Shown here piece by piece: positions 30,172 through 30,627 of a DNA stretch of 64,000 nt. This DNA comes from Candidatus Stammera capleta (GTDB lineage: Bacteria > Pseudomonadota > Gammaproteobacteria > Enterobacterales > Enterobacteriaceae), in NCBI GenBank assembly GCA_036689445.1, contig CP144825.1:21683-85682 (forward strand). The letters are read 5' to 3'. A model generated the notes under the pieces. It was not told the DNA's origin and ran no database searches. It saw only the letters and a list, made by a program, of their open reading frames with translations. The translations under genes were made by a program, and so were the position numbers. The stretch's first letter is position 1; every line of letters starts with the position of its first letter.

Positions 30172-30627
30172 ATGTTACAACCTAGAAAAACTAAATATAG
30201 AAAGGTACAAAAAGGACGTAATAGAGGTATATCTAATGATACTGAATTGAAATTTGGTAGTTTTGGATTAAAAGCTATAACTAGAGGTAGTATTTCTTCA
30301 AAACAAATTGAATCAGCTCGTCGTGTTATTACTCGTGTAATGAAAAAGCAAGGTTTTGTATGGATAAGAATTTTTCCTGATAAACCTATAACTAAAAAAC
30401 CTTTAGAAGTTCGTATGGGTAAAGGTAAAGGTAATGTAGAATATTGAATTTCTGTTATAAAACCTGGTAAAATTTTATATGAAATTGATGGAATTAGTAA
30501 AAAATTAGCTCAAAAAGCTTTTAGATTAGCTGGTGCTAAATTATCTGTTAAAACAATTTTTGTAATTAAAGACTTATTACTATGATTAATAATAAATTAT
30601 TGAAAAATAAAAGTATTGAAGAATTAA
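30172..30627 (+). CDS. rplP: 50S ribosomal protein L16, with a possible 14-codon read-through tail
   Basis: [17 protein letters not shown]...[14 protein letters not shown] (TGA 30445 on a conserved Trp). The ortholog-length end ...FVIKDLLL is followed by TGA at 30583, inside the ATGA overlap with the rpmC start. Under code 4 the frame continues to TAA at 30625-30627. If that TGA terminates, the end is 30585. Confidence 0.88.

Follow-up and report, generated by a model that had tools for sequence, protein, structure and literature searches.

Candidatus Stammera is a symbiont of beetles. The stretch of DNA analysed here (the window, 64,000 nucleotides) belongs to a Candidatus Stammera capleta genome of 318 kb and 17% GC, assembled in three contigs, and its forward strand carries the overlapping genes of two ribosomal proteins, uL16 (rplP) and bL29 (rpmC). 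The ortholog-length core of rplP comprises 137 codons (30172-30582), from the ATG at 30172 to a CTA codon at 30580-30582, and the conserved tryptophan of its EYW motif is written as an in-frame TGA (30445-30447). Directly after the core lies another in-frame TGA (30583-30585), with T as the next base. The T and G of this codon also belong to the start ATG of rpmC (30582-30584; the junction reads ctATGAtt), whose open frame extends on the same strand from 30582 to 30827 and reaches 44 nt into rpsQ.

Under translation table 4, the rplP frame continues from this TGA for 14 further codons (30583-30624), with the predicted sequence W LIINY W KIKVLKN. The potential read-through tail includes a second TGA at 30601-30603, which overlaps rpmC codon 7 (TTG at 30600-30602; ATG in the related genome G006), and it ends before a TAA at 30625-30627, the first in the rplP frame, which is built from the rpmC codons TTA-AAT of a conserved E-L-N motif. 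As a result, the table-4 rplP frame shares 46 nt (15 codons) with rpmC, read in a shifted frame. A sequence-only reading of this DNA had described the letters shared by the two genes, the tail with its inner TGA and terminal TAA, and its passage across 15 rpmC codons; all of this was confirmed.

The limits of both genes are supported by comparison with other bacteria. The rplP core is 57-64% identical to L16 of free-living Enterobacterales and 68-84% identical within the genus. L16 ends in ...FVTKTVM in four of six outgroups from the same order and in ...FVKKVVM in a fifth, while the core here ends in ...FVIKDLLL; the earlier placement of the ortholog-length end at TGA 30583 therefore holds against these outgroups, with a core one residue longer than theirs. 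L29 can be aligned from its N-terminus with the outgroup consensus MKAxELRxKSVEELN, supporting the rpmC start at 30582. No GGAG-like Shine-Dalgarno sequence was found upstream of the rpmC ATG, in contrast to rplP and rpsQ. At its other end (window 30740-30827), the rpmC frame goes about 17 codons past the conserved ...KTFLNIKEK, a stretch that takes in the Shine-Dalgarno sequence and the ATG of rpsQ as well as an A13 run; L29 C-terminal tails differ widely in length among Stammera.

Tryptophan codons and tRNA-Trp in the genus

In this genome, TGA accounts for 91% of tryptophan codons, and at 514 conserved tryptophan positions it stands opposite TGG in standard-code Stammera. The sole tRNA-Trp has the anticodon CCA; no tRNA with a UCA anticodon is present in the genome's tRNA set. 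The genus is heterogeneous in this respect. Five of the 45 Stammera species (G002, G003, G021, G057, and G060) write tryptophan only as TGG, and the standard code of G021 is illustrated by a 930-aa protein that lacks TGA altogether and carries 22 TGA codons in the genome studied here. A sixth species, G019, has mixed usage, with TGA at 23% of tryptophan codons. None of these six has a TGA inside rplP, and the codon aligned to the EYW tryptophan is TGG in G002, G060, G019, and G006.

The mixed-usage genome (G019, loci L159-L173) is an early-stage recoder. The base at position +4 after its sense TGA codons is A in 73% and T in 9% of cases, as against 36% and 37% after TGG (p about 3e-13), a skew that shows an apparent dependence of UGA decoding on context in this genus. 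Its prfB (the gene for release factor RF2) has one TGA at a conserved tryptophan position, and a U27.U43 mismatch reduces the anticodon stem of its tRNA-Trp(CCA) to 4 bp. In five genomes in which roughly 10% of tryptophan codons are still TGG (G000, the genome studied here, and G006, G020, G058, and G022), these residual codons are enriched in T at +4 (37-49%, versus 27-31% for TGA), both with and without prfB. The pattern is as if UGA followed by U had been the last context converted to tryptophan.

Anticodon stems of tRNA-Trp also vary. The 27-43 pair is U-A in standard-code G002, U.U in G019, and G.U in this genome, and a G30.U40 pair replaces G-C in all the code-4 and mixed-code Stammera compared; in the ARAGORN folds, a clear 27-43 mismatch occurs only in G019. 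The predicted weakening of the stem matches a published mechanism by which a CCA anticodon reads UGA (see below).

Origin and fates of the rplP TGA

The TGA at 30583-30585 is well supported as a true fossil, that is, as the ancestral rplP stop of the Stammera lineage. In standard-code G021, rplP ends at a TTA-TGA that forms the same ATGA with the rpmC start, as expected of the fossil stop proposed in the sequence-only reading, and mixed-code G019 has the same arrangement. An in-frame TGA in an ATGA overlap at this position occurs in 24 of the 45 Stammera species, nearly always as TTA-TGA, and all major clades of the genus tree are represented among them (the other 21 species include nine with TGT there), a distribution too broad for chance. 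Parsimony makes the ATGA overlap the ancestral state in Stammera. In free-living relatives, the rplP/rpmC junction reads TAATG or TGATG, with a one-letter overlap, which places the origin of ATGA at the base of Stammera. The earlier proposal that the overlap is ancestral is thus borne out within the genus and fails beyond it.

A different history would make the codon a tryptophan codon from the start: L16 would be natively longer, and the TGA would have arisen later, overlapping the rpmC ATG. The earlier reading had held that standard-code relatives with an L16 running past this point would speak against a fossil stop, and on this point the relatives are divided, as L16 stops there in G021 and runs 3-4 codons further in G002 and G060. 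In these last two standard-code genomes, the rpmC ATG is present and L16 ends at a TAA in another register. A natively longer L16 would also be in keeping with a similar ATGA at mutL/miaA, where the available standard-code relatives have no TGA stop. It is nevertheless very improbable, because G021 terminates at precisely the codon in question, outgroup L16 proteins end no more than one codon from it, and the sequence 3' of the TGA follows rpmC coding and contains no L16 motif.

The two other junctions of this kind are short. At mutL/miaA (window 16866-16877), an ATGA with an in-frame TGA gives a mutL end of ...DDI-W-I followed by TAA; the ATGA is kept in G006, G020, and G058, and mutL ends in TAA with a separate miaA start in standard-code G002, G060, and G003 and in mixed-code G019. 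At rnc/era (G000 C1:237929, outside the window), an ATGA with an in-frame TGA gives an rnc end of ...LNK-W-Y followed by TAA, in this genome only among nine compared. Their tails are of one or two residues. Neither was accepted as a demonstrated further fossil, since the standard-code relatives examined have no TGA stop there.

Gene ends were compared across the whole chromosomes of eight genomes, with a ninth, G003, added for prfB and TGA stops. TGA stops are scarce even in the standard-code references (about 8-14 of about 260 genes), and the true TGA stops of G002 and G060 correspond to TAA or TAG in all code-4 genomes at every position. Of the 262 genes whose reference end could be used, only rplP has a long TGA-containing extension past that end; several grossly extended genes, as in a transitional dual use of UGA like that described for the symbiont PSAC (see below), were not encountered. 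Similarly, rplP alone has a TGA in at least two genomes with prfB at the exact stop column (offset 0) of a sister without it. The other end-proximal TGAs leave 0-3 residues, against 14 in rplP. A search for further retained UGA stops in genomes with prfB, covering genes of at least 45 codons outside the two small contigs, yielded none among 273 ortholog sets or short ORFs, the hits being terminal conserved tryptophan codons or spurious ORFs in rRNA and tRNA genes. Across the eight chromosomes compared, no gene but rplP has on this evidence kept a UGA stop that is demonstrably ancestral.

The overlap with the rpmC ATG is the obvious candidate for the cause of this survival. As T and G are letters two and three of that ATG, the TGA would have been beyond repair when UGA was reassigned to tryptophan, because with TAA or TAG in its place rpmC would lose its start. 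The ATGA overlap, together with the lack of a Shine-Dalgarno sequence of rpmC's own, would have frozen the codon in place.

The junction has since taken several forms. Ten species have the TGA plus two codons before a TAA or TAG, and five have it plus five codons before a TAA. In nine species, through at least three events, TGA has become TGT (Cys), followed by the same five codons, with the consequence that a six-residue uL16 tail must be translated in these species. A TAA has been gained upstream in six species, four of them through AAA to TAA six codons earlier, at least two separate times. Finally, an in-place stop (TAG in G058, TAA in G052) accompanies a relocation of the rpmC start downstream; in these two genomes (loci L193 and L201), the start lies about six codons further on and the L29 N-terminus is shortened. 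Their new start is the codon that overlaps the second TGA of their sisters (ATG in G006, TTG in this genome). The junction illustrates how a stop may be held in place through a change of code by the start codon that overlaps it, and three later ways of escape: TGA to TGT, an upstream TAA, and a relocated rpmC start.

The second TGA (30601-30603) occupies the position of a back-up TAA found in relatives outside the clade of this genome. Within the clade, this TAA has become TGA, which in rpmC is a synonymous change of Leu TTA to TTG, and with the TAA gone, eight species have a longer potential tail, of 14 residues. Across the genus, the predicted uL16 C-terminus ranges from -6 to +14 residues, and the varied ends in relatives imply that uL16 can function with C-terminal ends anywhere between -6 and at least +6 residues. 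The computed average masses of unmodified uL16 are 15,604.5 Da for a stop at the first UGA (137 residues), 16,407.5 Da for the second UGA (143 residues), and 17,417.8 Da for the UAA (151 residues).

Judging from the overlapping frames, the sequence of the 14-residue tail in the eight species is a by-product of rpmC N-terminal codons read in another frame. The comparison of L16/L29 junctions among relatives, proposed with the sequence-only reading, found both that TAA or TAG has appeared in some of them and that the residues of the tail are set by rpmC. Selection for the tail as a functional C-terminal extension of uL16, reached by programmed read-through, is the least credible of the explanations considered. 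The 14-codon frame has stayed open in each of the eight clade genomes that have it, and the second TGA keeps its G against AT mutation pressure; the same G, however, is also needed for a TTG or ATG codon of rpmC, whose overlapping codons fix the tail residues. Of the 45 species, 37 have no such tail or a different one, and within the clade it has been removed by an upstream TAA (once, in G022/G059/G046), by the TAG of G058, and by the TAA of G052, leaving G022, G058, and G052 as natural tail-less variants.

Reading of the locked UGA and retention of prfB

The favored explanation, to which a probability of roughly 0.6 is assigned, is that an ancestral TGA frozen by the ATGA overlap is now mostly read as tryptophan and yields a tailed uL16. 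UGA would be read by the single tRNA-Trp(CCA), with its anticodon stem weakened by G27.U43 and G30.U40; most ribosomes would insert tryptophan at 30583 and 30601 and stop at the TAA at 30625-30627, and the outcome would be uL16 with a 14-residue C-terminal tail. On the codon evidence that follows, the tail is probably produced, RF2 would terminate at the two UGAs in a minor fraction of ribosomes at most, and efficient site-specific termination at the rplP UGA appears unlikely.

Among the 514 conserved-tryptophan TGAs of this genome, 152 are followed by T and 56 by TTA, and nine occur as Leu-TGA-TTA. The 12-nt context of the rplP codon, TTA-TGA-TTA-ATA, is found once elsewhere in the genome in identical form, where it encodes a conserved tryptophan, and prfB itself carries TGA-T at conserved tryptophan positions. 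A stop meaning conferred on the rplP UGA by its +4 base or local context was rejected on these two grounds, and the identical-context tryptophan codon argues against any simple stop signal of a local kind, one of the two outcomes weighed in the sequence-only reading. Several observations point away from read-through. The genome retains prfB with an intact GGQ, and between G006 and G020 this gene is conserved to the degree of a median gene. The T at +4 is the context avoided by sense TGA in G019 and over-represented at residual TGG, and the 14-codon potential tail is limited to eight genomes that still carry prfB.

The prfB gene of this genome lies outside the window, upstream of lysS (G000 C1:152519-153577; locus L002, 832-1893). 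It has 353 codons, with four in-frame TGAs at conserved tryptophan positions, and encodes an intact GGQ motif and NPF instead of SPF. The loss of prfB expected of a code-4 genome has not occurred here; instead, the genome combines a prfB containing in-frame UGA with a CCA-only tRNA-Trp, as in the PSAC-like transitional state. A prfB-like gene is present in 14 of the 45 Stammera species, among them seven clade-mates of this genome (eight genomes together). Seven of the clade genomes have a conserved copy that is open under code 4; that of G044 is shortened and diverged, with NPH instead of SPF and one tryptophan replaced by arginine. Protein identity of prfB between G006 and G020 is at the 58th percentile of genes, and the copy in this genome is at the 37th. 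The variant NPF motif is also found in RF2 of standard-code G003 and G057 (loci L122 and L124). It was rejected as a sign of a UGA-blind RF2 here, since G003 combines NPF with about 15 genes that end in TGA.

These data allow UGA to have a dual meaning in the cell, with RF2 still ending a large share of rplP translation at 30583 and given a second chance at 30601. Such termination would preserve a native-length uL16 and the coupling of termination and reinitiation to rpmC, and it would make rplP the last RF2-dependent stop, one reason for prfB to persist in the clade. This dual meaning is rather unlikely overall, although it has several points in its favor: prfB is open in seven clade genomes, with GGQ intact and an unremarkable 58th-percentile identity between G006 and G020; the NPF motif, given the TGA stops of G003, need not mean UGA blindness; rpmC has no Shine-Dalgarno sequence; and G019 provides a case of apparently context-dependent UGA decoding in the genus. 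The state of the junction also tracks prfB. In a clade of 13 species, all eight with prfB have TGA...TGA and all five without it have a true TAA or TAG stop. However, this correlation comes down to two contrasts that are independent on the tree (sign test p=0.5), from which no statistical association is concluded, and G044 keeps TGA...TGA despite its degraded prfB. Further evidence against a dual meaning is that the prfB of this genome is the more diverged copy, that the nucleotide context of the rplP stop codes for a conserved tryptophan elsewhere, that RF2 mRNA itself requires read-through of two to five of its own UGAs (UGA-U included), and that sense-TGA usage is equal with and without prfB (0.90-0.92 and 0.89-0.91 of tryptophan codons, respectively).

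A more specific and somewhat more doubtful proposal is that the rplP UGA is the last RF2-dependent stop and that selection maintains prfB in this clade because of the ATGA lock and the disappearance of the back-up TAA. If so, lineages would lose prfB only after rplP had gained a UAA or UAG, and one codon would have two meanings per cell, with a self-limiting RF2 and a near-cognate tRNA-Trp competing for it.

Reassignment of a stop codon presumably involves an ambiguous stage, of which few natural intermediates are known. The genus Stammera by itself spans a series of steps, from the standard code, through 23% TGA with A strongly favored at +4, to about 90% TGA, and the last of these stages splits into genomes with and without prfB. 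At the rplP/rpmC junction, the C-terminal mass of one highly expressed protein could report how UGA is read at each stage.

Comparison with known systems

Stammera is a known code-4 lineage, and a table in Manzano-Marin et al. 2023 (PMC10540940) lists it as lacking prfB. The retention of prfB in the genome studied here is unexpected, and that entry is untrue for this lineage. The gTranslate paper of 2026 (PMC13695967) states that five basal Stammera genomes use code 11 and have prfB, that some code-4 Stammera assemblies keep prfB, and that none has a tRNA-Trp(UCA); the present data reproduce this heterogeneity of code within the genus. The passages of that paper that concern Stammera or prfB do not deal with gene ends, the rplP/rpmC junction, the +4 context, or the tRNA stem.

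Reading of UGA by a tRNA-Trp(CCA) with a weakened or 4-bp anticodon stem is described in PMC13092985. As in the cases presented in that work, the changes seen in code-4 and mixed-code Stammera relative to the standard-code species affect the upper end of the anticodon stem. The listing there gives Stammera capleta a 5-bp stem, and the weakening described here is a prediction from the folds.

Another close parallel is Ca. Providencia siddallii PSAC, for which a transitional UGA code has been reported (PMC10540940). Both PSAC and this genome have only tRNA-Trp(CCA) and keep a prfB with in-frame UGA, and in both a few genes have been proposed to need a UGA stop, a ribosomal protein gene included. 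They differ in degree: in the account of PSAC, UGA occurs in about 20% of genes and there are nine candidates for UGA stops, whereas here TGA makes up 91% of tryptophan codons and there is one candidate.

The logic of the lock itself was set out by McCutcheon et al. 2009 (PMC2704378), where ATGA stop/start overlaps were proposed to conserve UGA stops and RF2 in Carsonella, and C-terminal extensions were predicted to follow the loss of RF2 and to be trimmed later by UAA or UAG. The reasoning there, that letters shared by ATG and TGA bar the drift of UGA to UAA, is the same as that applied here. In that paper, it is a hypothesis about other symbionts; in Stammera, the locked codon lies in a genome that has already been recoded, and sister species show each of the predicted outcomes. 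The single locked locus, its escape routes, and its link to prfB retention are absent from the passages of the literature searched. With the phenomenon predicted and the code heterogeneity of the genus already published, the rplP/rpmC junction of Stammera is a new example of that phenomenon rather than a new principle.
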